40,467 bases of DNA from a virus. Under the pieces are notes generated by a model. That model made no database searches. It saw nothing but the letters and a program-made list of their open reading frames with translations, and was not told where the DNA came from. Where the stretch lies: UHGV virus genome UHGV-0212168; one strand, written 5' to 3'. Positions 37 to 26,931 of this stretch are shown piece by piece. The translations under genes were made by a program, and so were the position numbers. Each line of letters starts with the position of its first letter. Positions within the stretch are counted from its first letter, which is position 1.

Positions 37-1125
37 ATGCAGACAGCGATTAATACAGATGTTTTTATACGGCAGGTATTAAACACATTGGTAACTCAGA
101 TGGAGATGTGGGACGAGCTCAGACGGCAGAAAGAGGTCGAGGCGGCCCTGTACATGAATTTGATGAACAAGACCATCCTGTCAGAGTCGGAGGAGAGGCA
201 GTTGCCGGCAGAGTATGTGGATGATACCCCTCGGGTGGTGGAGATGTTCCTGCAGTGCCTGAAATTGGAGAAGAGAACAGATGCCACTATCGTGAACTAC
301 CGTGGCGAACTTAAATGTCTTTTCCAATTCCTGCGGAAGAACTACGCGGACGTGACAAGCAATGACATCAGGGCCTATCTGGCCTGGAAGCAGACGGAGC
401 ACCACAACAAGGATAACACCCTTAACAATAAGATTCACGTCTTTCAGTCATTTTACAAATGGCTCATGAATGAGGATTTGCTGGAAGATGGTGGTTGCCT
501 CATGCGGAAACCCAAGAAGAATCCCATGGGTAAAGTCTATAAGATTAAAGAGGAGCAGCGCGTGAAGCGGGTGCTGTCGGACGAGCAGGTGGAAATCATC
601 CGGTGTGGCTGTCGGCATGTCAGGGATAGAGCCATTGTGGAGATATTGGTGGCTACAGGGATGCGTATATCAGAGCTGGTCGGATTAGATGTTGGCGACA
701 TAGACATCAGCCGGAAACGCTGCATTATCTACGGTAAGGGACGCAAGGAACGGCCGGCCTTCTTTACTCCCAGGGCGATTGTACACTTGGAAGCATACCT
801 GGAGTGGCGCCGGGCACTACCAGACACCAGCGCGGCGCTTTTCATAAATTTTAGGAAAACTGGAGGTGTGTATGGCAGGGTGTGCACCTGCACCATACGC
901 AAGATGCTCAAAGAGATAGTGGCCAGTGACCCGCGGCTTGAAGGGTTAAACCTGCACCCGCATAGGTTCCGGGCGTATCTGGCTACATACATGGCCCGGC
1001 ACGGGGCATCACTTAAGGACATAGCGGCGGTCCTGGGACACAGCAATGTCAATACAACCATGGAGTGTTATATCATTGAGGACCCAGAGGAGACACAGGC
1101 TGTACATGGCAAGTGCGCGGGGTAA
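37..1125 (+). CDS. Tyrosine site-specific recombinase (XerC/XerD-like phage integrase family), second recombinase int1
   Basis: The C-terminal catalytic region carries the R..H-x-x-R..Y signature (HPHRFRAYLATYMARHG, LGHSNVNTTMECY). The N-terminus has a SAM-like core-binding domain. A GAGGGAGGA RBS sits 6 nt before the ATG at 37. The frame is open to window position 1, so the true start could lie upstream. Confidence 0.8.
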   Translation: MQTAINTDVFIRQVLNTLVTQMEMWDELRRQKEVEAALYMNLMNKTILSESEERQLPAEYVDDTPRVVEMFLQCLKLEKRTDATIVNYRGELKCLFQFLRKNYADVTSNDIRAYLAWKQTEHHNKDNTLNNKIHVFQSFYKWLMNEDLLEDGGCLMRKPKKNPMGKVYKIKEEQRVKRVLSDEQVEIIRCGCRHVRDRAIVEILVATGMRISELVGLDVGDIDISRKRCIIYGKGRKERPAFFTPRAIVHLEAYLEWRRALPDTSAALFINFRKTGGVYGRVCTCTIRKMLKEIVASDPRLEGLNLHPHRFRAYLATYMARHGASLKDIAAVLGHSNVNTTMECYIIEDPEETQAVHGKCAG

Positions 1126-1680: not shown

Positions 1681-1799
1681 ATACCCAATTCCCGGCGCCT
1701 GAAACTTAGGGCGTCCGGGGCCTCCTAAAAAGGTTCTGGTAAACATGAAGAGACTTTCCCCCTGTTTGATTTTATGGTAAGATAGAAAGAAAAGTGAGG

Positions 1800-2327
1800 A
1801 TGGTGATAACCATGGAAGAGGGGACGGTATTCACATGTAATAAAAATGAACATAAAAAATTGTATTCAAACGATTCAGAGAATATTTTTTATGAGGGATA
1901 TTGTTTTCTAAAAACGGCAGAAAAAATACGCCATATGCAGTTTGAATACCAAGGGGAGATGGGGAACCTCATAGCACCGTATATAGTAAATCTTTCTTTT
2001 GCGGCCGAATTGTTTTTAAAAAGTCTGTTGGTATCCACAAGGGTACAGTTTAAGCCCACACATGATTTATATAAATTGTATTCGTTGATTAATGATGATG
2101 AGATAAAAGATAACATAAAAAGTGCTTGCTACAGATTAAAAGATATCGACAAGTCCGATATTGAATTTGAGAAGTCATTGAATGATATTCGTGAGGTGTT
2201 TGAATACTGGCGCTATGTGTATGAAAGAATGCATATAGCAACGGCTGTATCATTTATTAAAGATTTTGCATATGCAGTAATGATAGAAGCTGAAAAGCAC
2301 AAGATTGAAAACGAACGGAAGGGATAG
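1800..2327 (+). CDS. HEPN-domain protein (PF05168-like), orphan with no adjacent nucleotidyltransferase
   Basis: LSFAAELFLKSLLVSTRVQFKPTHDLYKLY matches the HEPN helix-2/3 core (..A.E..LKALL....... THDL..L) and contains an R-x6-H motif. The protein is predicted all-alpha. The start codon is ambiguous between GTG 1794, ATG 1800 and ATG 1812. Confidence 0.55.
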   Translation: MVITMEEGTVFTCNKNEHKKLYSNDSENIFYEGYCFLKTAEKIRHMQFEYQGEMGNLIAPYIVNLSFAAELFLKSLLVSTRVQFKPTHDLYKLYSLINDDEIKDNIKSACYRLKDIDKSDIEFEKSLNDIREVFEYWRYVYERMHIATAVSFIKDFAYAVMIEAEKHKIENERKG

Positions 2328-15000: not shown

Positions 15001-15201
15001 CTCCCCGCGAGCACCTATGGGAATGAAGGATACGGTCCGGGATATGCTGTGGATTACCGCAGGATGGGACAGGAAATGGCAAATGCTATGGACGGTGTAT
15101 CCGTCAATATGGACGGGAAGAATGTGGGAAGCATTGTGTCTGAACCTGTGAATGACAACCTGGGGAACCGTGGAAGGATGGAAGGAAGGGATATGGAATG
15201 A
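12070..15201 (+). CDS. Tail tape measure protein
   Basis: It is 1043 aa with Gly/Ala-rich helical repeats and a coiled-coil central region, following the chaperone pair. The N-terminus MAHFDLQLFEADG carries the Prp-type motif. Confidence 0.9.
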   Translation: MAHFDLQLFEADGHLNFDTRVDEKGFSSGISKLGGIAKGGLAVLGASVAGITAAFAGMSKAALGSVASLEQNVGGVETLFKENAKTVIENANNAYKTAGLSANEYMQSVTSFSASLLQSVAGDTAEAAKIADMAMVDMSDNANKMGTDMTSIQNAYQGFAKQNYTMLDNLKLGYGGTKEEMNRLLADATKISGVKYDISNLNDVYSAIHVIQGELDITGTTAKEASTTIEGSMNAAKAAFDNFLNGSGTAKELADAVATVARNVGKNLGEIIPRLAETVPMVVEELWQEFEGSADQFIQMGAGLVTDIATGLVEQLPALIELAVSFVDTLIQGLNENMPQLLEAGGSLLIAIVQGIIMLVPSLLSLGWSIIEGIVQGLLNNAPTLQTQAVNLFNQFTSVISTRLPQLLQQGANAINQFTQGLLSKAPSLITNAGNIISKLYNVILGILPQILETGIKLIGQLAQGILSNLPAVIGAAAEALIQIIATIASHLPEILQKGIELLGELAAGIIQAIPELVGKLPQVFTSVKAKFLEFDWIQIGKDIVSGIANGLKNSIGTIIDAAKSVGEAALDGLKSLLGIHSPSRVFRDEVGRNISLGIAEGIRSNKKYAKKSAEEVAQATLEAAKKKLENHKVYNRLTLADEAGYWDEVRKQTKEGTQARIDADKEYLSAKKDLNDRMLEAEENYTDKVANAYKDLNDRIKDLNNQYKDAVNQRADQIKSAYGLFDAFDSSTDLTADDLLNNLQSQVDGLKQWRKNLRDLERRGIGDDLLEELQELGPKAAAEIQLMTEMSDDQLDEYVSLFKAKNRIARQEAVAEMEPMRGEISKQIAQMQRETSAELAKYQQEYVSSMTELGVALNQPLETMKLTAAQNAVALVSAMAGSIKDASGSTENLEQFKAIARNVLGSVDTLPSSMSDVGKQSIISMIEGIRSMSGQLQAAVQAVVANAMQAAAGAMMGNGGINAALAGVGAVTGTSSLPASTYGNEGYGPGYAVDYRRMGQEMANAMDGVSVNMDGKNVGSIVSEPVNDNLGNRGRMEGRDME

Positions 15202-15899
15202 AATATTTAGGAATCACCTTTGATGAGGAGAAGCATACCTATGATGATTTTGGCCTTCGGATTAAGTCCATCAATATAGGGTTCCCATCGGTAAAGGAGA
15301 GTAAGATTGACATACCGGGAGCGGATGGCTACCTTGATATGACGGATTACTTCGGCACCCGGTATGAGGACCGCAAGATTACGATTGAATGTGACATAGA
15401 GGACCGGAGCTATTATGACTGGGCTGGACGTATGAGCCAGCTCAGTAACTACCTGCATGGAAAGAAACGGAAGATTGTTCTGGACTGGGACAATGGGTTT
15501 TATTACCTGGGGCGCGGGACCTGTGAATATGAAAAGAAGAACCGGGCATTCAGCCTGGTGACACTGAAATTTGAATGTGACCCATATAAATATGAGCTTA
15601 CGGCCACGGATGAGGACTGGTTGTGGGACCCATTCGATTTTGAGGAAGGAGTAATAAAGGAATATGGGAACCAAAACGTGGACGGGACGCTTGTGCTTAC
15701 TGTTATAGGCTCACCCATGCCGGTGGTGCCAAGAATTACAGTATCATCCGATATGCAGGTGGAATTCGAGGGTGAAAGGTTTGACCTGAAAGCGGGAGAA
15801 AACTATCTGCCGGATATTGAGATAAAGGATGGAGAGCATGTGATGACATTCACGGGACATGGTATCGTGACTGTAAGCTACAGGGGAGGAAGCCTGTAA
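15198..15899 (+). CDS. Distal tail protein (Dit)
   Basis: It is 233 aa immediately after the tape measure. The N-terminus MKYLGITFDE..FGLRI...IPGADG is typical of siphovirus Dit/tail-component proteins. Confidence 0.8.
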   Translation: MKYLGITFDEEKHTYDDFGLRIKSINIGFPSVKESKIDIPGADGYLDMTDYFGTRYEDRKITIECDIEDRSYYDWAGRMSQLSNYLHGKKRKIVLDWDNGFYYLGRGTCEYEKKNRAFSLVTLKFECDPYKYELTATDEDWLWDPFDFEEGVIKEYGNQNVDGTLVLTVIGSPMPVVPRITVSSDMQVEFEGERFDLKAGENYLPDIEIKDGEHVMTFTGHGIVTVSYRGGSL

Positions 15900-17896
15900 T
15901 GTATAAAATCAACAATGTGATTGACGGCAGAACGTACTGCCTGCATGACCAGCGGGACAGGAACCTGCGAGTGATTGAGCCTCGTCTTACCCTTACCCTC
16001 AACAAGACAGGAGCTCTTACATTCCGCATTCCTTCCAGTCATATGTATTCCAACACCTTAAAGAAGATGAAGTCATCCATCCAGGTAATGGAGGATGGGA
16101 TATTGATATATGAGGGACGCGTGCTGTCGGATGAGTCGGATTTTCATAATACAAAAGATGTGGTATGCGAGGGAAGCCTGGCCTATCTCATTGACAGCGC
16201 ACAGCGCCCCTTTTCTTTGAGTGGAAACATCCATGATTTCCTCGCCCAGATGGTAGAAAATCATAATGGGCAGGTGGAGGAGCGGAAACAGTTTGTCCTT
16301 GGCCGGGTGAATGTGGCCGATGAAAACAATGAACTTAAGCGGGAGTCCGCTAAGATTGACAATACCTGGAACACGCTGAAAGCGCAGCTGATAGACGTCC
16401 ATGGTGGATACATATGGGTTGAATACAGGGACGGCAAGAAGTATCTTAATTACACCTACGACTATGGCGGTAAGAATGAACAGCAGATACGTTTTGGCGT
16501 CAATCTCCTGGACCTAACAAAGTATCAGGATGCTACTAATGTGGTAACATGTATGATACCCTACGGAGGGGATGTGGAATACCAAGACGAGCTTGGGGAG
16601 ACGCAGACAGGCACGGTCGATATTACATCGGTTAATGACGGGAAGGATTATATCACAGCGGAGCAGGCCGTGCTGGATGAATACGGGAAGATATGGGGGA
16701 CGTTCCAATGGCCAGACATCACAGACCCCGCAAGGCTCCTGGAAAAGGCCAAAGAATACCTGAAGGAGGTGTCCGGGATACCGGATACGCTTAAGGTATC
16801 AGCCGTAGACCTGAACTATACTGGGGTAGACATCCGGCGCTTCCGGGTCGGATATTACACAACGGCTATCAGCAAGCCTCACGGAGTCAGCAAGGACCTG
16901 TTACTGGCTCAGCTTGACATGTACCTGGATGACCCGGCAAAGGGCAGCATATCCCTTGGGACCACAGTGAGCAGCTTTACAGGCGCCACCGTGAATAAGC
17001 AGGTAAGTATTTCAAAAGCCGTACAGGAGTCCGAGGCAAAAACATATGAAGAACTGGCCCGGAAGATTGCCAATGCAACAAATCTTATCACAGGAGGGCT
17101 GGGAGGTTATGTGGTCCTTGATAGTCAAGACCCGGTTACAGGTAAGAAAATGCATCCCTGGCGTATCCTGGTTATGAATACACCGGATAAAGAGACCGCA
17201 ACAAATATCATCCAGATAAACCAGAATGGCATCGGATTCTCCACCAGTGGCATCAACGGACCTTATCGTAACGCCTGGACCATCGACGGGAACCTGTTGG
17301 CTGATTTCATCACTGCCGGCCAGATGCTGGCGGACCGCATTCGTGGCGGAATCCTGGAGGTAGGCGGGTATGGCCTTGCCAAAGATGGAAAGATTGTGGT
17401 CAAAAACGCCAACGGTAACGAGATTGGAAGCTGGGACAATACAGGACTGCACGTCCTGCTGGGAGTGATTCAAGGCAGCACCATAATTGGTTCTGATATC
17501 ATTAGCGGTACGATTGACATAGGAAACGGGACTTTTTATGTGGATGATGATGGAGCCGTGGCAATCAACTCCGGTCAGATTGCTATTGGGAATACTTTGA
17601 TTACTCCAAGTTATACCTGGATAGGAGATTTTGGGGTGTCTAGTAATGGAACTGGAGCATTTTATAGCAGGGACAATACGATTGAGATTTTTACTCCTGC
17701 ATTCCCATATATGAACGGTCCAGCAATGCAATTAAGTTATAATGGGATGACTACAAGAGTAAGTTATAGTGCTATAACAACAAGAGATATTACATTAAAT
17801 ACGCTGGTAAGTGAGTATGGGGGGCAATGGGGGTCAGTATCTACTAATATAATTGAACTCTGGAATAGAATAGAAAGACTTGAAGCTAAATCATAG
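15899..17896 (+). CDS. Tail-associated lysin / tail endopeptidase-like protein (Tal)
   Basis: It is 665 aa after Dit. The N-terminus is conserved (MYKINNVIDGRTY...LTLTLNKTGALTF). The C-terminus is Gly/Ile-rich and beta-helix-like, and the last roughly 100 codons are AT-rich. Confidence 0.75.
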   Translation: MYKINNVIDGRTYCLHDQRDRNLRVIEPRLTLTLNKTGALTFRIPSSHMYSNTLKKMKSSIQVMEDGILIYEGRVLSDESDFHNTKDVVCEGSLAYLIDSAQRPFSLSGNIHDFLAQMVENHNGQVEERKQFVLGRVNVADENNELKRESAKIDNTWNTLKAQLIDVHGGYIWVEYRDGKKYLNYTYDYGGKNEQQIRFGVNLLDLTKYQDATNVVTCMIPYGGDVEYQDELGETQTGTVDITSVNDGKDYITAEQAVLDEYGKIWGTFQWPDITDPARLLEKAKEYLKEVSGIPDTLKVSAVDLNYTGVDIRRFRVGYYTTAISKPHGVSKDLLLAQLDMYLDDPAKGSISLGTTVSSFTGATVNKQVSISKAVQESEAKTYEELARKIANATNLITGGLGGYVVLDSQDPVTGKKMHPWRILVMNTPDKETATNIIQINQNGIGFSTSGINGPYRNAWTIDGNLLADFITAGQMLADRIRGGILEVGGYGLAKDGKIVVKNANGNEIGSWDNTGLHVLLGVIQGSTIIGSDIISGTIDIGNGTFYVDDDGAVAINSGQIAIGNTLITPSYTWIGDFGVSSNGTGAFYSRDNTIEIFTPAFPYMNGPAMQLSYNGMTTRVSYSAITTRDITLNTLVSEYGGQWGSVSTNIIELWNRIERLEAKS

Positions 17897-17955
17897 AAAG
17901 GGGTGTTGAATTAAAAGTATCTCTAATGTATAATGCAACTATAGGAGGGATTTAT

Positions 17956-18525
17956 ATGAAGAAAATTAGTATTCTTATAGCCACATTATTGTCATTGGTT
18001 TTTACTTTTAATGTGTTCGCGATGGAGATTGAATATAATAATCCAAATGACCCAAATGAGCCAACCTTGATCATTCCAAATCCAACAAATGAAAAAAGAA
18101 ATGCTGATAGAACGCTTGATTATAAGTGGACATGGATAAGTGATGAAATAGTGGCACGTTTTCAGCCTGGGAAAAGAGCCAATGATAGAAGAGCGTATCT
18201 TCAAGAATCGTTTAATTATGGCATGATTGGTGGAGGCCACGGCATAAAGGACGACGGAGGGAAACGCGAGACTTATTCCGGTAAATGGAGTCAGTCAGAA
18301 GATGGAATCTGGTCTTTCCAGTTTGATGATTATACCATTCCGGTGGATATCACCAAGATTGATGGCGTATTATATGCCTTTAATGGGTACGGCGAACTGG
18401 TGGAAGGGTATGATTATTGGAACGGCCATAAGACTGCTGCAGACGGCCTAGTGACTTGTACGGACCCTGAGTTTATTACCTATCTGGAAACGCAGTACAT
18501 TCCAGACTGCACTAGCCATGAATAG
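17956..18525 (+). CDS. Secreted protein with a signal peptide and cell-wall-binding (CW_binding_1-like) repeats
   Basis: A signal peptide (MKKISILIATLLSLVFTFNVFA) precedes a signal peptidase I site. Downstream are repeats (DGIWSFQFDDYT, DGVLYAFNGYGELVEGYDYW) that resemble choline/cell-wall-binding repeats. An AGGAGGGA RBS precedes the start. The region is low-GC. Confidence 0.6.
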   Translation: MKKISILIATLLSLVFTFNVFAMEIEYNNPNDPNEPTLIIPNPTNEKRNADRTLDYKWTWISDEIVARFQPGKRANDRRAYLQESFNYGMIGGGHGIKDDGGKRETYSGKWSQSEDGIWSFQFDDYTIPVDITKIDGVLYAFNGYGELVEGYDYWNGHKTAADGLVTCTDPEFITYLETQYIPDCTSHE

Positions 18526-18597
18526 AATTTGATATGGATTGACGAGAGCGAGGCAATGTCCCCGCTCTTTTTGTATGCCGAAAGGAAGGTGATTGTT

Positions 18598-19194
18598 ATG
18601 GCAGCACAGCCCGTACATATTGACATAAATCAGCAGATACAGGACTGGAAGAATGCCAGATATGGACGGCAGGTCAGGTCTGCTAATGTGGAGGCATTGA
18701 CAGAGCTGCAAAACCAGATGAACGGCGCCGTGGATTATCTGGTTGAGAAAGGTGAAACTGTTGACCAGGCGGCCAAGGATGTCCAGTTGGTCCGGCAGGA
18801 AGCGCAGGGCGCCGTTGACCATGCCAATGAGATTACAGAGGAATATAAGCAGTATGCAGATACGAAGTTGGCGGAAACCACGGAGCAGCGGCAGCTGGCA
18901 GAGACCGCAAAAGAAGAAGCAGACGAATCTGCCCTGCTGTCAGAAAGTTGGGCCCATGGAGGAACCGGAACAAGGCCAGGGGAGGATACAAATAACAGCG
19001 AGTATCACAGCCAGCAATCTAAGACCCAGGCTGACAGGGCAAAGGATGAAGCTGACAGGGCTAGTCAGTATTCGCAGATTACAGCTCCTGACTTTTATCT
19101 GGATATAGAGACCGGAGCTCTTTATCAAAAAGGCGGGGCCGGAGTTGATTTTGTTGTGGCTGACGCGATACTGTACTGGAAAATCGTAGCATAA
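18598..19194 (+). CDS. Putative tail fibre/baseplate-associated protein (coiled-coil)
   Basis: It is located in the tail-tip module. The middle is Q/E/A-rich coiled-coil. An AGGAAGG RBS precedes the start. Confidence 0.4.
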   Translation: MAAQPVHIDINQQIQDWKNARYGRQVRSANVEALTELQNQMNGAVDYLVEKGETVDQAAKDVQLVRQEAQGAVDHANEITEEYKQYADTKLAETTEQRQLAETAKEEADESALLSESWAHGGTGTRPGEDTNNSEYHSQQSKTQADRAKDEADRASQYSQITAPDFYLDIETGALYQKGGAGVDFVVADAILYWKIVA

Positions 19195-19204
19195 GGAGGA
19201 TATT

Positions 19205-19876
19205 ATGGCAGCACCAGAAGGATATACAAAGTTAGGAAATGTTGGCTACGCAGACAAGGGGGTATACAGCGCGGATGCCACGTATAATAAGTACAATACG
19301 GTGTACCATGAGGGTAGTACCTATGTGGCGTTAAAGGATAACCTGCATGGAGTCACGCCGGCAGACGGTGCAAACTGGCGGTATATGGCCAAGGGATTCA
19401 CAGAGGCGTCAGCTGATGCTATTACCGTTATAGACACATCGGGAATCATTGACGGGACGAAGAATAAAAAAACTATCTTGCAGACCTTCCTTGATAAGGT
19501 AGGGGATTTTATTATCAATAAAGCTGTGACTAATGATGCCCTTATGCTGAAACTGGCGGATTATGTAGCAAAGACGGATATTGTGCAGGTGGAGTCCACA
19601 GCTACAAATAAGGTCCCATCCAGCGCGTACCTTAAGCAGGTAAAAGATAGCATAGATAGCAATTTAGCAGCGGCCAATGCAAAGGTGACTTTAAACGGCG
19701 TCAAGAACATTAATGGGTTTACAGCCGTATATTCCGACCGGACCGACCGGGCATTCCAGCTCTACTATGAAAACGGTGAGATTGCGTCAATCGCATTTAA
19801 CAACACCGGTATCTGGTATGATTTTTATGATGGACAAAACTGGAAACAGGTTTGGAAGTTTAATAAGCCATCATAA
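19205..19876 (+). CDS. Putative tail fibre / receptor-binding protein
   Basis: The motif YNKYNTVYHEGSTYVALKDNLHGVTPADGANWRYMAKG is characteristic of phage fibre-tip proteins. It is the last structural gene before the moron and lysis cassette. Confidence 0.45.
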   Translation: MAAPEGYTKLGNVGYADKGVYSADATYNKYNTVYHEGSTYVALKDNLHGVTPADGANWRYMAKGFTEASADAITVIDTSGIIDGTKNKKTILQTFLDKVGDFIINKAVTNDALMLKLADYVAKTDIVQVESTATNKVPSSAYLKQVKDSIDSNLAAANAKVTLNGVKNINGFTAVYSDRTDRAFQLYYENGEIASIAFNNTGIWYDFYDGQNWKQVWKFNKPS

Positions 19877-20204
19877 TAATCATTTAAGCTCCCAAGCGCC
19901 AAAAGCCGATGAGTTATCAGCAGCGATGCGCTGATATAAGGCGTTACTGATAGTAACGTATGTCTGAGAGACAAATTGATTACACACAATGCTTTTAAAA
20001 ACACCAGTCTCATTTACGGGATAATTATATGTGGTTAGATTACCCTGTACAGGATTACAGTAAAATATTATGTTGTGGTTTCTATAATCGTCAGCGTTGT
20101 TTTTACCTGACCATAGACCATCATTTTTTATAAGCAGCTTATCACCTAAATTGCTATTTTCGCTAATAAGGAGCTGTCCTTGAAACAGCAGAAAGAGAGG
20201 ATTT

Positions 20205-20699
20205 ATGAAATTTTTAGAAGCCTTAAATAATATGAAAAAGGGAATTCCAATGAAGCTTCCGTCCTGGGGCGGATTTTGGTGCTGGGACACGAATGAGGAA
20301 ACCATCGTCATGTACACAAAGGATAATCAGCGGCTTGATATACGCGAAACACAAAGGGTGGAATATACACTGAGGAATGTGATGTCGGATGAATGGGAAG
20401 TCGCCAATGGGGAAAATACACCCATCTTGGGCGGAACTGCCGCCTTTGGTTTCGGCGATGCTGTTAAATACATGAAACGCGGATTAAAAGTTAAAAGACA
20501 GGGATGGAACGGGAAAAATCAGCATATCGAACTGGCAGCTGATATCAGCTATAAAAATGCAGATGGCGAGATTGTAAACTGCTTGCATGATGCCATTGGA
20601 AACAAAGCCATTGCGTTTGTTGGCACGAGCGGCGTACAGATGGGATGGCTGGCAAGCCAGGCTGATATGCTGGCTGAGGATTGGGTGTTTGCTGAGTAA
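20205..20699 (+). CDS. Tandem DUF2829-like protein (two Tad2-like domains)
   Basis: Two internal repeats each carry the K.G..v.R..W / ..DW(E/V) pattern (KKGIPMKLPSWGG...SDEWEV and KRGLKVKRQGWNGKNQHIEL...LAEDWVF). An AGAGAGGA RBS precedes the start. A terminator follows. Confidence 0.55.
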   Translation: MKFLEALNNMKKGIPMKLPSWGGFWCWDTNEETIVMYTKDNQRLDIRETQRVEYTLRNVMSDEWEVANGENTPILGGTAAFGFGDAVKYMKRGLKVKRQGWNGKNQHIELAADISYKNADGEIVNCLHDAIGNKAIAFVGTSGVQMGWLASQADMLAEDWVFAE

Positions 20700-20748
20700 T
20701 ATTCTTGCTATTTGTGATAAGAAAAAATGAATCGTAACCTGCAAATTA

Positions 20749-20776
20749 GGTCCCTAAACCAGGGACTTATTTTATT
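20749..20776 (+). terminator. Rho-independent terminator after the DUF2829 gene
   Basis: Stem ggtccct/agggac with loop aaacc is followed by TTATTTTATT. Confidence 0.5.
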
Positions 20777-20818
20777 GCCTGGCGTCCGGCATGTCCGGCC
20801 AGGCGGAAAGGAAAATGT

Positions 20819-22881: not shown

Positions 22882-22914
22882 AAAAACGGCGGGGATTATT
22901 CCTCGCCGTTAATT
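22882..22914. terminator. Bidirectional terminator between the endolysin and the convergent zinc-finger gene
   Basis: Stem acggcgggg/cctcgccgt is flanked by an A-run on one side and a T-rich run on the other. Confidence 0.5.
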
Positions 22915-23410
22915 ACTCCCATTCTAGTAATGTCCATCCCTTCCATGAATGTGATGGTGCTTTTGGACGTTTGCCCAGTGCTGTGGCTTTGATTTTAACA
23001 AAACCGTCAAATGCTTGGCGGGGTGTGCCATCAAACAAGCCAGGATTACTTTTTATAAAATGCATGAGGTTCTGACATTCATATACTTGTCCGTCGGGAG
23101 CTTGAATGACCCAATGCTTTGCATTTGTATGTGCTTCGCCGGTGTGCTCCGCTTGAAACTGTTCTTTGCATTTCTGCCAGCGCTGGATGGATTCGGCGTA
23201 TATCCCAGTCTTATGCAGCTGCCTACGGTGAGCAGAAGAACAAGCAGGGGAACAGCACACATTATCATTGGTTGGAGGGACCTTGAAAGATTTGCCACAA
23301 ATTGGGCAGCTACGATAATGTTGTTTGTATTCCGCCTCACAGGACTTACAACAAAAGTATTTGTTTCTTTTCGGTTTATTTCTACCACATATGATACAAG
23401 TATCTAACAA
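22913..23410 (-). CDS. Zinc-finger protein with a C-terminal NUMOD4-like motif, TTG start
   Basis: The N-terminus has two CxxC...CxxC clusters. The C-terminus has W.I.APDGQVYECQNL, which is NUMOD4-like. The start is TTG with an AAGGGA RBS. No HNH motif was seen. Confidence 0.4.
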   Translation of the reverse strand: MLDTCIICGRNKPKRNKYFCCKSCEAEYKQHYRSCPICGKSFKVPPTNDNVCCSPACSSAHRRQLHKTGIYAESIQRWQKCKEQFQAEHTGEAHTNAKHWVIQAPDGQVYECQNLMHFIKSNPGLFDGTPRQAFDGFVKIKATALGKRPKAPSHSWKGWTLLEWE

Positions 23411-23423
23411 GACAACACATCCC

Positions 23424-23840
23424 TTAAAGCACCATTTTATGTATCTCTTTACCGTATTTTACATTTTCAAAAAACTTCTGGTCAATGCTTTTCGGACAGT
23501 ACTCATAATCGCTATCCTCAATGCCTAACTTACCCATTTCATCATGAATAAATTTGAAATAATCATCATGCGAAAAGACGCGAGGATCTGAAAAAACATT
23601 GTAGCTATCAGGCAACAGTTTTTCGTAGGCCAAGTCTGAAAACCTATTTAAAAGTTTTTTCATCAGACAGGGATGGATAAGCTCTTCTAACTGCCTGATA
23701 ATTAATTCTTCCGCCCAAGGAGCTGGATTCCGTTTCCCGGCTTCCCAGTCCTCAATAGTCCTGGTAGGTATTTCCAGATAAGCAGATAAATCAGATTGTG
23801 TCATTCGTGCTTTCATGCGGTATTCTTTAATTCTGTTCAT
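23424..23840 (-). CDS. HTH (XRE/MqsA-like) DNA-binding protein with a C-terminal domain of unknown function
   Basis: The N-terminus (RMKARMTQSDLSAYLEIPTRTIEDWEAGKRNPAPWAEELIIRQL) resembles the MqsA-type HTH. An AGGAGG RBS sits 5 nt before the ATG. It is tightly coupled to the upstream gene, 9 nt after its stop codon. Confidence 0.6.
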   Translation of the reverse strand: MNRIKEYRMKARMTQSDLSAYLEIPTRTIEDWEAGKRNPAPWAEELIIRQLEELIHPCLMKKLLNRFSDLAYEKLLPDSYNVFSDPRVFSHDDYFKFIHDEMGKLGIEDSDYEYCPKSIDQKFFENVKYGKEIHKMVL

Positions 23841-25684: not shown

Positions 25685-25891
25685 TACTCAAATGATACTA
25701 GAATTTTTAATAGACAAAATAATTAAGACTAAAATCAATAAAAATCATACCTAATCAAGCTCAAAATACGAAAAATAGGTTGAAGAAAATCCTGGGAGCT
25801 TGTCGAACGATTATGGGAAAAAAGCCTGACATACCAATAAATACGGCATAATCAGGCTTTTTATAAGCATGGATGATACTACTTTGATACT
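25682..25891. repeat. Two pairs of TGATACT direct repeats spaced 11 bp, flanking a roughly 170-bp segment downstream of int2 (candidate attP arm-type sites)
   Basis: TGATACT occurs at 25682, 25693, 25874 and 25885. Each pair is one helical turn apart. The pairs bracket the int2 3' terminator and an AT-rich region. Confidence 0.4.
25818..25862. terminator. Bidirectional terminator downstream of int2
   Basis: Stem aaaaagcctga...tcaggcttttt has an A-run on one side and a T-run on the other. Confidence 0.5.
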
Positions 25892-26931
25892 AATTGCTGT
25901 AATTTATCGGCAACCTCATTACGCCGATTGGGATAGAGGTGGCCATAAATATTATTGACCATATCAACAGTATCTCCAATCCGTTCCGCAATTAAGAGTG
26001 GGGAGAAGCCCATATCAATGAGCAATGAAACATGGCTATGGCGCAAATCGTGTATGCGAATGCGCCTTATTCCTGCTGCGCTGCTGTATTTTTTCATGGC
26101 TGTGATTAGTTTGCTCTGAGTGGTCTTGAAAAGCCGTTCCCCTGTTTCTATCCCATAAATACGTCCAGCATAGTCTGACAAGCAATCTACCAGGAACGGC
26201 GGTATGGTAATATCACGCACACTGTTAGCTGTTTTAGGTGTAGTGATTACATCCTGACGGTTAACTCGGTGATATGTTTTGGATATATGGATAATCCCAG
26301 CATTCAGCTCCACGTCCTCAAGATTTAGGGCAAACATTTCGCCACAACGCATACCTGTATAGTATAAGGTCATGAATGCGGCATAGAGATGGGGATTTTT
26401 AATTTGGCCAATAAACAGGTTAAACTCGTCCAGCGTCCAGAAGTCCATTCTGCTGGCCCTGGCCTTTCCTATAGGGCCAGCGATACCGCACGGGTTCCGC
26501 GGGAGTCCGTAGTACCGTACGGCAAAGTTTAATACAGCATTGAGCTGGTTATATATCTGGCGCTGGTAAGTGTCTTTTAAGGTGCTGGATAGTATTTTAG
26601 CCTGCCATTGCCGTATATCAGCGGGGGTAATTTCATTGAGGGGCTTATCTTTAAAGTAGGGGACTATGTGACGCTCACAGGGCCCCTTTTTGTTACGAAT
26701 GGTAGACTGCTTAAGCCTGTGCTTTATGTCCTCTGTATAGAGGTCATAGAGCGCCTGGAAGGTCATATCTGGACTCCCAGCGTGTTTTGACAGAAAGTCC
26801 CTCTCCCAATCCTTGGCATCCCCCTTTTTGGTAAAGCCTCGTTTCAACTTCTGGCGGCGCTGGCCTGTCCAGTCTTTGTAGTAGAATTTGCAGTAATAGG
26901 TTTTTTGTTTTTCATCGTAATATGACGGCAT
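25879..26931 (-). CDS. int: Phage integrase (tyrosine recombinase with N-terminal arm-binding domain)
   Basis: The N-terminus (MPSYYDEKQKTYYCKFYYKDWTGQRRQKLKRGFTKKGDAKDWERDFL) is an AP2-like arm-binding domain. The catalytic region has RIHDLRHSHVSLL..YGHLY. An AGGAGGTGG RBS precedes the start. It heads the lysogeny module. Confidence 0.9.
   Translation of the reverse strand: MPSYYDEKQKTYYCKFYYKDWTGQRRQKLKRGFTKKGDAKDWERDFLSKHAGSPDMTFQALYDLYTEDIKHRLKQSTIRNKKGPCERHIVPYFKDKPLNEITPADIRQWQAKILSSTLKDTYQRQIYNQLNAVLNFAVRYYGLPRNPCGIAGPIGKARASRMDFWTLDEFNLFIGQIKNPHLYAAFMTLYYTGMRCGEMFALNLEDVELNAGIIHISKTYHRVNRQDVITTPKTANSVRDITIPPFLVDCLSDYAGRIYGIETGERLFKTTQSKLITAMKKYSSAAGIRRIRIHDLRHSHVSLLIDMGFSPLLIAERIGDTVDMVNNIYGHLYPNRRNEVADKLQQLVSK

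Follow-up and report, generated by a model that had tools for sequence, protein, structure and literature searches.

A widespread phage gene that joins two distinct Tad2-like domains, a candidate sponge for Thoeris-type immune signals

We analysed virus genome UHGV-0212168, a stretch of 40,467 nucleotides (hereafter, the window), and found that an open reading frame (ORF) at 20205..20699 encodes a 164-amino-acid (aa) protein which, judged from sequence comparison, is a fusion of two distinct Tad2 subtypes: an N-terminal 'WGGYW'-type domain (hereafter, the N-type domain) and a canonical Tad2 domain. We consider it probable that the product is a Tad2-family sponge, in which one chain with two different Tad2-fold domains would sequester an ADP-ribose-derived signal of the Toll/interleukin-1 receptor (TIR)/Thoeris type. 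The gene and its local signals are arranged as follows.

20205..20699, plus strand: ORF of the two-domain Tad2-like protein, 164 aa, running from an ATG start to the TAA stop codon at 20697-20699
20205..20405, plus strand: N-type mini-Tad2 domain, aa 1-67, with the 'PSWGGFW' loop, T55, N58 and W64 (phrog_1048, PF11195 and AlphaFold2)
20406..20444, plus strand: linker, aa 68-80, ANGENTPILGGTA, with N71, L75, G76 and G77 largely conserved
20445..20696, plus strand: canonical Tad2 domain, aa 81-164 (PF11195, 2.2e-18; 8sme, 8e-10; Foldseek)
20505..20513, plus strand: codons W101-N102-G103 of the beta1-beta2 pocket loop, corresponding to W25/N26 of SPO1 Tad2 and W21/N22/G23 of HgmTad2
20646..20666, plus strand: codons W148-L-A-S151-Q-A-D154, corresponding to W73...S76...D79 of SPO1 Tad2 and to W87, L88, S90 and D93 of HgmTad2
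20166..20204, plus strand: leader, containing a hairpin (20173-20189) and, at 20195-20201, the purine-rich ribosome-binding site (RBS) GAGAGGA
20747..20777, plus strand: terminator-like hairpin, a 9-bp stem followed by a T-run, 48 nt past the stop codon

The preliminary description of this gene, made from the letters of the window, had read the protein as two DUF2829 (Tad2-like) halves, each with a K.G..W core and a C-terminal DW ending, and had credited the gene with its own RBS and terminator; these features were recovered, the last as a terminator-like hairpin. The N half carries K11-K-G13-I-P-M-K17-L-P-S-W21-G-G (KKGIPMKLPSWGG) and ends in S-D-E-W64-E-V, and the C half carries K91-R-G93-L-K-V-K-R98-Q-G-W101-N-G (KRGLKVKRQGWNG) and ends in A-E-D-W160-V-F. 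The Pfam family PF11195 (Tad2-like, formerly DUF2829) matched the full-length protein in two stretches, the better one covering aa 83-161 (6.9e-20; 71.8 bits, the cut-off being 25), and matched the C half alone (aa 81-164) at 2.2e-18 (67 bits). The N half of the present protein alone gave no match to PF11195; among 20 orthologous N halves, 15 were matched, the best at 2.6e-8. The profile searches on which the assignment had been made to depend thus returned DUF2829 similarity for the C half directly and for the N half through its orthologues. In addition, phrog_1048, a family of unassigned function in PHROG, spans the protein end to end (7.4e-49), with the N half (aa 1-67) aligned to its positions 31-96, and no NCBIfam model matched the protein. 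The closest solved structures by sequence were SPO1 Tad2 (8sme, 8e-10, aa 81-161), SptTad2, HgmTad2/AcrIIA7, pdAcrIIA7 and Myroides Tad2, and these matches include solved Tad2 proteins (8sme, 8kbi, 8wjd and 9eib) that bind glycocyclic ADP-ribose (gcADPR) or histidine-ADP-ribose (His-ADPR).

Structure prediction by AlphaFold2 gave a full-chain model with a mean predicted local distance difference test score (pLDDT) of 89.9 and a predicted template modelling score (pTM) of 0.71, and a model of the N half alone with a pLDDT of 94.3 and a pTM of 0.82. When the full-chain model was compared with the PDB using Foldseek, all 24 matches at E<=0.001 were Tad2 or AcrIIA7. For the N-half model, the top six PDB matches were SPO1 and Myroides Tad2 (probability 1.00; template modelling (TM) score 0.62-0.68), with a root-mean-square deviation of approximately 3 Å for five SPO1 Tad2 chains and 4.7 Å for the Myroides chain; the seventh match had E=1.8, so that the confident matches were to Tad2 only. 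The Tad2 fold to which these matches point comprises a helix at the N terminus, an antiparallel sheet and, at the C terminus, a short helix and a strand that ends in DW. Because both the full-chain and the N-half models match Tad2 structures, both halves are predicted to adopt the Tad2 fold, in agreement with the profile matches to the orthologous N halves. A search of BFVD gave no two-domain match over the whole chain (query-normalised TM score <=0.43).

At the sequence level, the two halves resemble each other weakly, yet more than by chance. A BLASTP comparison between them gave E=6e-4 over 21 aa, with approximately 8 of 21 identities in the sole alignable stretch. Profile-profile alignment with hhalign, using alignments of 20 orthologues, gave 94.8% probability and E=5e-8 over the first 23 columns, and a hidden Markov model (HMM) built from either half picked up the other type at 1e-5 to 1e-7, the C-half HMM detecting stand-alone N-type proteins at approximately 1e-6. 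Both halves resemble stand-alone proteins far more than they resemble each other. The 68-aa gp006 of Clostridium phage CP51 shares 53% identity with the N half, which is also similar to the 75-aa gp24 of Ruminococcus phage RG-TP1; each of these two genes is complete and comes from a complete genome. With the C half, an 84-aa single-domain phage Tad2-like protein in BFVD shares 59% identity, and single-domain genes in Lachnospiraceae genomes share 67-83%. These relationships argue for fusion instead of duplication; a recent internal duplication was ruled out on the same comparison, and the tandem duplication named in the preliminary description is not supported.

A split counterpart of the fusion was detected in the Bacillus cereus-group siphoviruses SpaA1, BceA1, phi4J1, Waukesha92 and BMBtp3, in which two adjacent DUF2829 genes with a one-base overlap encode a 'WGGYW' protein and then a canonical Tad2, in the order seen here. 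In SpaA1 (a Staphylococcus/Bacillus phage; locus L104, 1277-1782) and BceA1, the first gene product, P60 (80 aa), has the N-type-like loop SIWGGYW, and the second, P61 (87 aa), carries GWNGKN and is of the canonical Tad2 type. The Bacillus-phage pairs differ from the present gene in that they are two polypeptides, in that P60 keeps a longer middle region, and in that they sit at the genome end among small genes, whereas the present gene lies in the late operon. Two proteins in the same order, fused once and overlapping once, are a classical signature of joint action, and the fused and split forms found here point to the two subtypes acting together. P61 is among the Tad2 homologues tabulated by Yirmiya et al. 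Other arrays include a canonical-canonical tandem (P0185) and a three-domain protein (P0135). Four further entries (P0337, P0168, P0347 and P0366) look like N-type domains alone and are actually genes of the fused form with a frameshift or stop just past the linker, which may reflect pseudogenes or errors of assembly.

Conservation of the ligand pocket was assessed on an alignment of 59 sequences, consisting of the present protein and 58 homologues from species-representative genomes (47-81% identical). The gcADPR pocket of SPO1 Tad2, defined by crystal structures and mutagenesis, is formed by W25, N26, W73, S76, T78 and D79 (10.1101/2023.05.01.538930), and that of HgmTad2 by W21/N22/G23, W87, L88, S90, T92 and D93 (10.1101/2023.11.15.567273). 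By alignment, the equivalents in the C domain are W101, N102, G103, W148, L149, S151, A153 and D154. W101 and G103 are present in all 59 sequences, and N102, W148, S151 and D154 in 58 each, suggesting that the canonical pocket for ADP-ribose signals is intact in the C domain. SPO1 Tad2 (gp34.65; 8SME/8SMF/8SMG), the founding anti-Thoeris sponge, aligns end to end with the C domain, has the same fold and shares the pocket residues W25/N26/W73/S76/D79, and its beta2-beta3 insertion is similar in length and different in sequence. SPO1 Tad2 consists of one domain of 89 aa and assembles as a homotetramer, whereas the present protein has an additional, divergent Tad2-fold domain ahead of the canonical one. 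Likewise, the GWNGK loop and the GWLASQxDMLAxDW motif of HgmTad2 (the same protein as AcrIIA7; 8KBI-8KBM) and SptTad2 (8WJD) are nearly identical in the present protein. The insertion of HgmTad2 that binds cyclic dinucleotides (R31, P32, S47, F70 and N85) was also considered as a possible second pocket. The C-domain insertion (aa 105-140) does not align with the insertion of either HgmTad2 or SptTad2, only its flanks being matched, and R31 and P32 have no counterpart; there is accordingly no evidence for binding of cyclic dinucleotides such as cGG or cGAMP.

The N domain shows a different set of conserved residues in the same alignment: K17 and W21 in 59/59, W64 in 58, G23 and W25 in 57 each and N58 in 55, together with a near-invariant T49 (55-58 of 59) and R47 in 46. 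The conservation of K17, W21, G23, W25, N58 and W64 suggests that the domain is under selection. In a hand alignment anchored on the common N-terminal motif and the C-terminal DW, the N domain keeps W21, T55 (for S76) and N58 (for D79), has G22 at the position of N26, and is without a tryptophan equivalent to W73 and without the entire insertion between strands 2 and 3. Retention of the ligand-binding residues in each half, a point raised in the preliminary description, therefore holds for the C half, which keeps W101, N102, W148, S151 and D154, and fails for the N half at the N26 and W73 positions.

Since the residues with which solved Tad2 proteins bind their ligands are retained in the C half, an anti-defence role as a signal sponge is the best reading of the gene, in line with the anti-defence candidacy proposed for it earlier. 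The protein would oligomerise, in the simplest form as two chains giving a Tad2-like pseudo-tetramer of four domains, and the assembly would bind and sequester a Thoeris-type signal (of the 3' cyclic ADP-ribose (3'cADPR) or gcADPR type), so that the host effector would stay inactive. The N-type domain might serve as the partner protomers that complete the assembly, or might form a second, different pocket. Transcription late in infection would coincide with the making of capsid proteins, known triggers of Thoeris, as in the staphylococcal Thoeris system triggered by phage capsid proteins (PMC12578639).

Several points weigh against the sponge reading. Relative to the SPO1 contacts, T78 is replaced by A153 and D67 by G143 in the C domain, and H71 has no counterpart. 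The canonical pockets draw their W/N/W/D residues from two protomers, and a hybrid pocket between a C and an N domain might not bind gcADPR, because the N domain is without the N26 and W73 equivalents. Anti-defence genes are often expressed early, and a place in the late operon with no evident promoter is atypical for them. The ligands of Tad2 relatives vary and include gcADPR, His-ADPR, N7-cADPR, cyclic dinucleotides and cUMP/cCMP, with tracrRNA for one of them. Finally, no binding, oligomer or phenotype data on any fusion of the N-type and canonical domains were found in the literature.

The contribution of the N-type domain can be read in more than one way. The two domains could form an obligate hetero-assembly, made as a fusion by Clostridia phages and from overlapping gene pairs by Bacillus phages, with an asymmetric or extra pocket for a signal that homotetrameric Tad2 cannot capture; we regard this as a speculative extension with a modest chance of being right, which, if true, would establish hetero-oligomeric sponges as a new class and might point to a signalling molecule of gut Firmicutes that has so far gone unrecognised. 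About equally tentative is a sponge of dual or altered specificity, in which a pocket of the N domain itself, or a hybrid pocket, would bind a different immune signal, be it a cyclic mono-, di- or oligonucleotide or a novel molecule, and two systems would be neutralised at once. There are precedents for a single Tad2 with two pockets, HgmTad2 binding gcADPR and cGG and MoTad2 binding His-ADPR and cUMP, and the N-type domain has its own well-conserved residue set (K17, W21, G23, W25, T49, N58 and W64, with R47 in fewer sequences). Its stand-alone occurrence in phages CP51 and RG-TP1 suggests, moreover, that it is likely functional by itself. However, no ligand is known for any N-type protein, the domain is without the insertion that forms the dinucleotide pocket of HgmTad2, and the C-domain insertion does not supply one, as described above. 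Conversely, the loss of the N26 and W73 equivalents and of the whole insertion region, together with the conserved linker, which suggests a fixed geometry, would fit an N-type domain that is a degenerate pseudo-protomer, a structural partner that fixes stoichiometry or stability and binds nothing. This is improbable in our estimate, as residues of surface type are strongly conserved in the domain (W21 in 59, W25 in 57, N58 in 55 and R47 in 46 of the 59 sequences) and true stand-alone N-type genes occur in complete phage genomes.

Two further explanations would remove the protein from Thoeris altogether. Sequence matches to the AcrIIA7 entries 8kbi and 9kzr, and a 2026 paper reporting tracrRNA binding by head-less AcrIIA7, raise the possibility of an RNA binder whose tetramer groove would sequester tracrRNA or another RNA, acting as an anti-CRISPR instead of an anti-Thoeris protein. 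The AcrIIA7 matches are limited to family-wide motifs, however. The positively charged groove residues of pdAcrIIA7 are K58, K66, K71, K93 and R101; the present protein has basic residues (K91/R92, R98 and K104) in the family motifs, and K93 and R101, two of the five proposed RNA contacts, fall in the unaligned insertion according to a hand estimate of the offset, the other three having been mapped by hand. Another group found HgmTad2 to be without anti-CRISPR activity (10.1101/2023.11.15.567273). In addition, pdAcrIIA7 (9KZR, 158 aa), a tetramer with a Tad2-like core and an extra N-terminal domain, has a 48-aa N-terminal 'head' that its authors describe as an unprecedented fold that masks RNA binding; the head abolished activity, and the present protein has a whole extra N-terminal domain, in this case a second Tad2 fold. 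RNA binding is very unlikely in our estimate. Slightly less credit still is given to a late structural, assembly or lysis accessory protein unrelated to immunity. Its constant late-operon placement, in the head module or, in approximately 20 of 58 loci, near holin and endolysin genes, would agree with such a role, but the slot varies among head module, lysis cassette and fibre end, a 570-bp unit with the gene moves from one backbone to another, and the pocket of a known sponge family is conserved. Most related phages also have no homologue, and in a megablast search with the region no near DNA match was found among 50,697 phage records.

Homologues of the protein are numerous. A word-indexed search returned 6,846 of them, the best 120 being nearly all 164 aa long with a few up to 181 aa, and an exhaustive search gave 2,326 clusters at 50% identity. 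Full-length homologues are present in 58 species-representative genomes of Clostridia, the carriers including Blautia, Dorea, Mediterraneibacter, Anaerobutyricum, Anaerostipes, Faecalimonas, Ruminococcus bromii, Oscillospiraceae and Anaerovoracaceae. The N-type domain occurs in no fewer than 583 stretches of IMG/VR, and the fusion was found in 78 of the best 80 loci, which are those nearest to the query by the N-type profile, so that this proportion may not hold family-wide. Among named phages, gp19 of phiRg507T2_3 (a Ruminococcus gnavus phage) and 00011 of Dorea phage DO134P1 are full-length two-domain homologues with 67% identity, annotated as hypothetical; they lie in a holin-endolysin slot or a head module, with no adjoining fibre inversion segment. 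The architecture, which had been described as unusual, is thus common in sequence databases, as the existence of phrog_1048 also indicates, and the protein can be placed with confidence as a Tad2-like family member in a widespread hetero-tandem form, an assignment that would not surprise specialists. In the literature searched, no mention of tandem DUF2829 was found, and in the parts of the supplementary tables of two large Tad2 surveys that were accessible, no N-type motif was found.

The gene behaves as a mobile accessory gene that has recently been exchanged as a unit of approximately 570 bp. The identical 164-aa protein was recorded in 866 blocks of the assembly collection. Its phage carriers have at least four unrelated backbones, namely two of siphovirus type (one of them like the window), one with a Peptidase_S74 fibre, and one of phages with a P22-type portal. 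Across these backbones, only window positions 20146-20714 (approximately 570 bp) are common, with 99.5% identity; the hairpin at 20747-20777 lies outside this shared block.

The placement of the gene between tail-fibre and lysis genes, as originally described, was confirmed. Upstream lie Dit (15198-15899), Tal (15899-17896) and two fibre-like genes (18529-19194 and 19205-19876), and downstream follow a 136-aa protein (phrog_12931), XkdX, an XhlA-like protein, an r1t-type holin and an NlpC/P60 endolysin. Among the 58 species-level loci, the head-module slot has a minor head protein (17 loci) or a portal (4) upstream and a scaffold (13) or capsid (4) gene downstream; the lysis slot has a holin upstream and an amidase, lysozyme, CHAP or NlpC/P60 endolysin downstream. 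In all contexts examined, the slots are accessory-gene positions of the late operon. A scan of the conserved 59-nt leader found no sigma-70-like promoter. Given the late slots and the presence of an RBS without such a promoter, read-through is the simplest source of the transcript, and transcription together with the late operon is probable.

Work on Tad2 sponges has so far dealt with single-domain homotetramers, and the hetero-tandem form is very abundant in the prophages that Lachnospiraceae and Oscillospiraceae of the human gut carry; counter-defence against TIR signalling may therefore be present in a large share of gut phages. An assembly of two subtypes, fused or split, could alter stoichiometry or ligand range, and automated annotation detects only one of the two domains. 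In the window, moreover, the exchanged 570-bp accessory gene directly adjoins a device for host-range switching, which is composed of the following elements.

19648-19667: left inverted repeat (IR-L), 20 nt, paired with the right inverted repeat at 20146-20165; common core AGCAATTTAG
19668-19876, plus strand: active tip, the C-terminal end of the fibre gene
20145 down to 19880, minus strand: silent alternative tip, in frame across the repeat, reading ...SNL and then GDKLLIKNDGLW...AFGAWELK and a stop codon
20146..20165, no strand: right inverted repeat (IR-R) of the tail-fibre inversion segment, forming the left edge of the 99.5% shared block

The two tip modules are convergent and bracketed by the inverted repeats, and segment 19648-20165 is an invertible tail-fibre segment of the programmed type exemplified by the Mu G segment and by shufflons. 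Inversion of the tail-fibre type is known, including in gut prophages (PMC9881135; PMC6109161). The active tip of the window sits silent and inverted in locus L004, and its silent tip sits active in the IMG/VR loci L013 and L021, in which the constant region of the fibre is identical over a 28-nt junction probe; at least 10 different tips were found at this fibre junction. The exact inverted-state junction of the present phage gave no match in IMG/VR, and a broader junction search gave matches. Two earlier candidates were rejected on this evidence, namely the 328-bp upstream gap as a private promoter region and the minus-strand ORF 19880..20317 as a gene; both are made up of the silent fibre module, IR-R and the leader. 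As to the enzyme, an Xer-like second tyrosine recombinase next to the terminase region (37..1125, plus strand; PF00589, 4e-31) is a candidate invertase of the fibre segment, and the prophage integrase is separate from it (25879..26931, minus strand).

IR-R and the leader are absent from all 145 loci of the more distant two-domain homologues, which occupy head or lysis slots. On this ground, the idea that the Tad2-like gene is functionally tied to the inversion segment was rejected, and the adjacency is a lineage-specific accident of a hot spot. Indeed, the slot right after IR-R is a hot spot of accessory genes with variable cargo. In one locus (L007, 5552-6000), a DUF4406 gene is inserted between two copies of the 59-nt leader (window 20142-20200), its only match in the PHROG scan being of nucleoside 2-deoxyribosyltransferase type. 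In another (L008, 6595-7893), two extra genes (218 and 185 aa), without a family match in the PHROG scans, are followed by the same 37-nt terminator piece, and in a third (L019), a different 51-aa ORF occupies the slot.

Some other genes of the window were recorded in addition. Between the Tal and fibre-like genes, a 199-aa protein (17926-18525, plus strand) with no Pfam, PHROG or NCBIfam match has a hydrophobic, signal-like N-terminal segment (KKISILIATLLSLVFTFNVFA) and a C-terminal region rich in Trp, Tyr and Gly, and may be a secreted or surface accessory protein. Just 5' of the terminase genes lies a HEPN-domain protein (1794-2327, plus strand; PF05168, 4.8e-5), preceded by a regulator-like gene (1046-1591; phrog_36). 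Right after the endolysin, a CxxC-rich protein of 165 aa without a family match (22913-23410, minus strand), whose CxxC pairs are probable zinc ribbons, is followed by a helix-turn-helix protein at 23424-23840.

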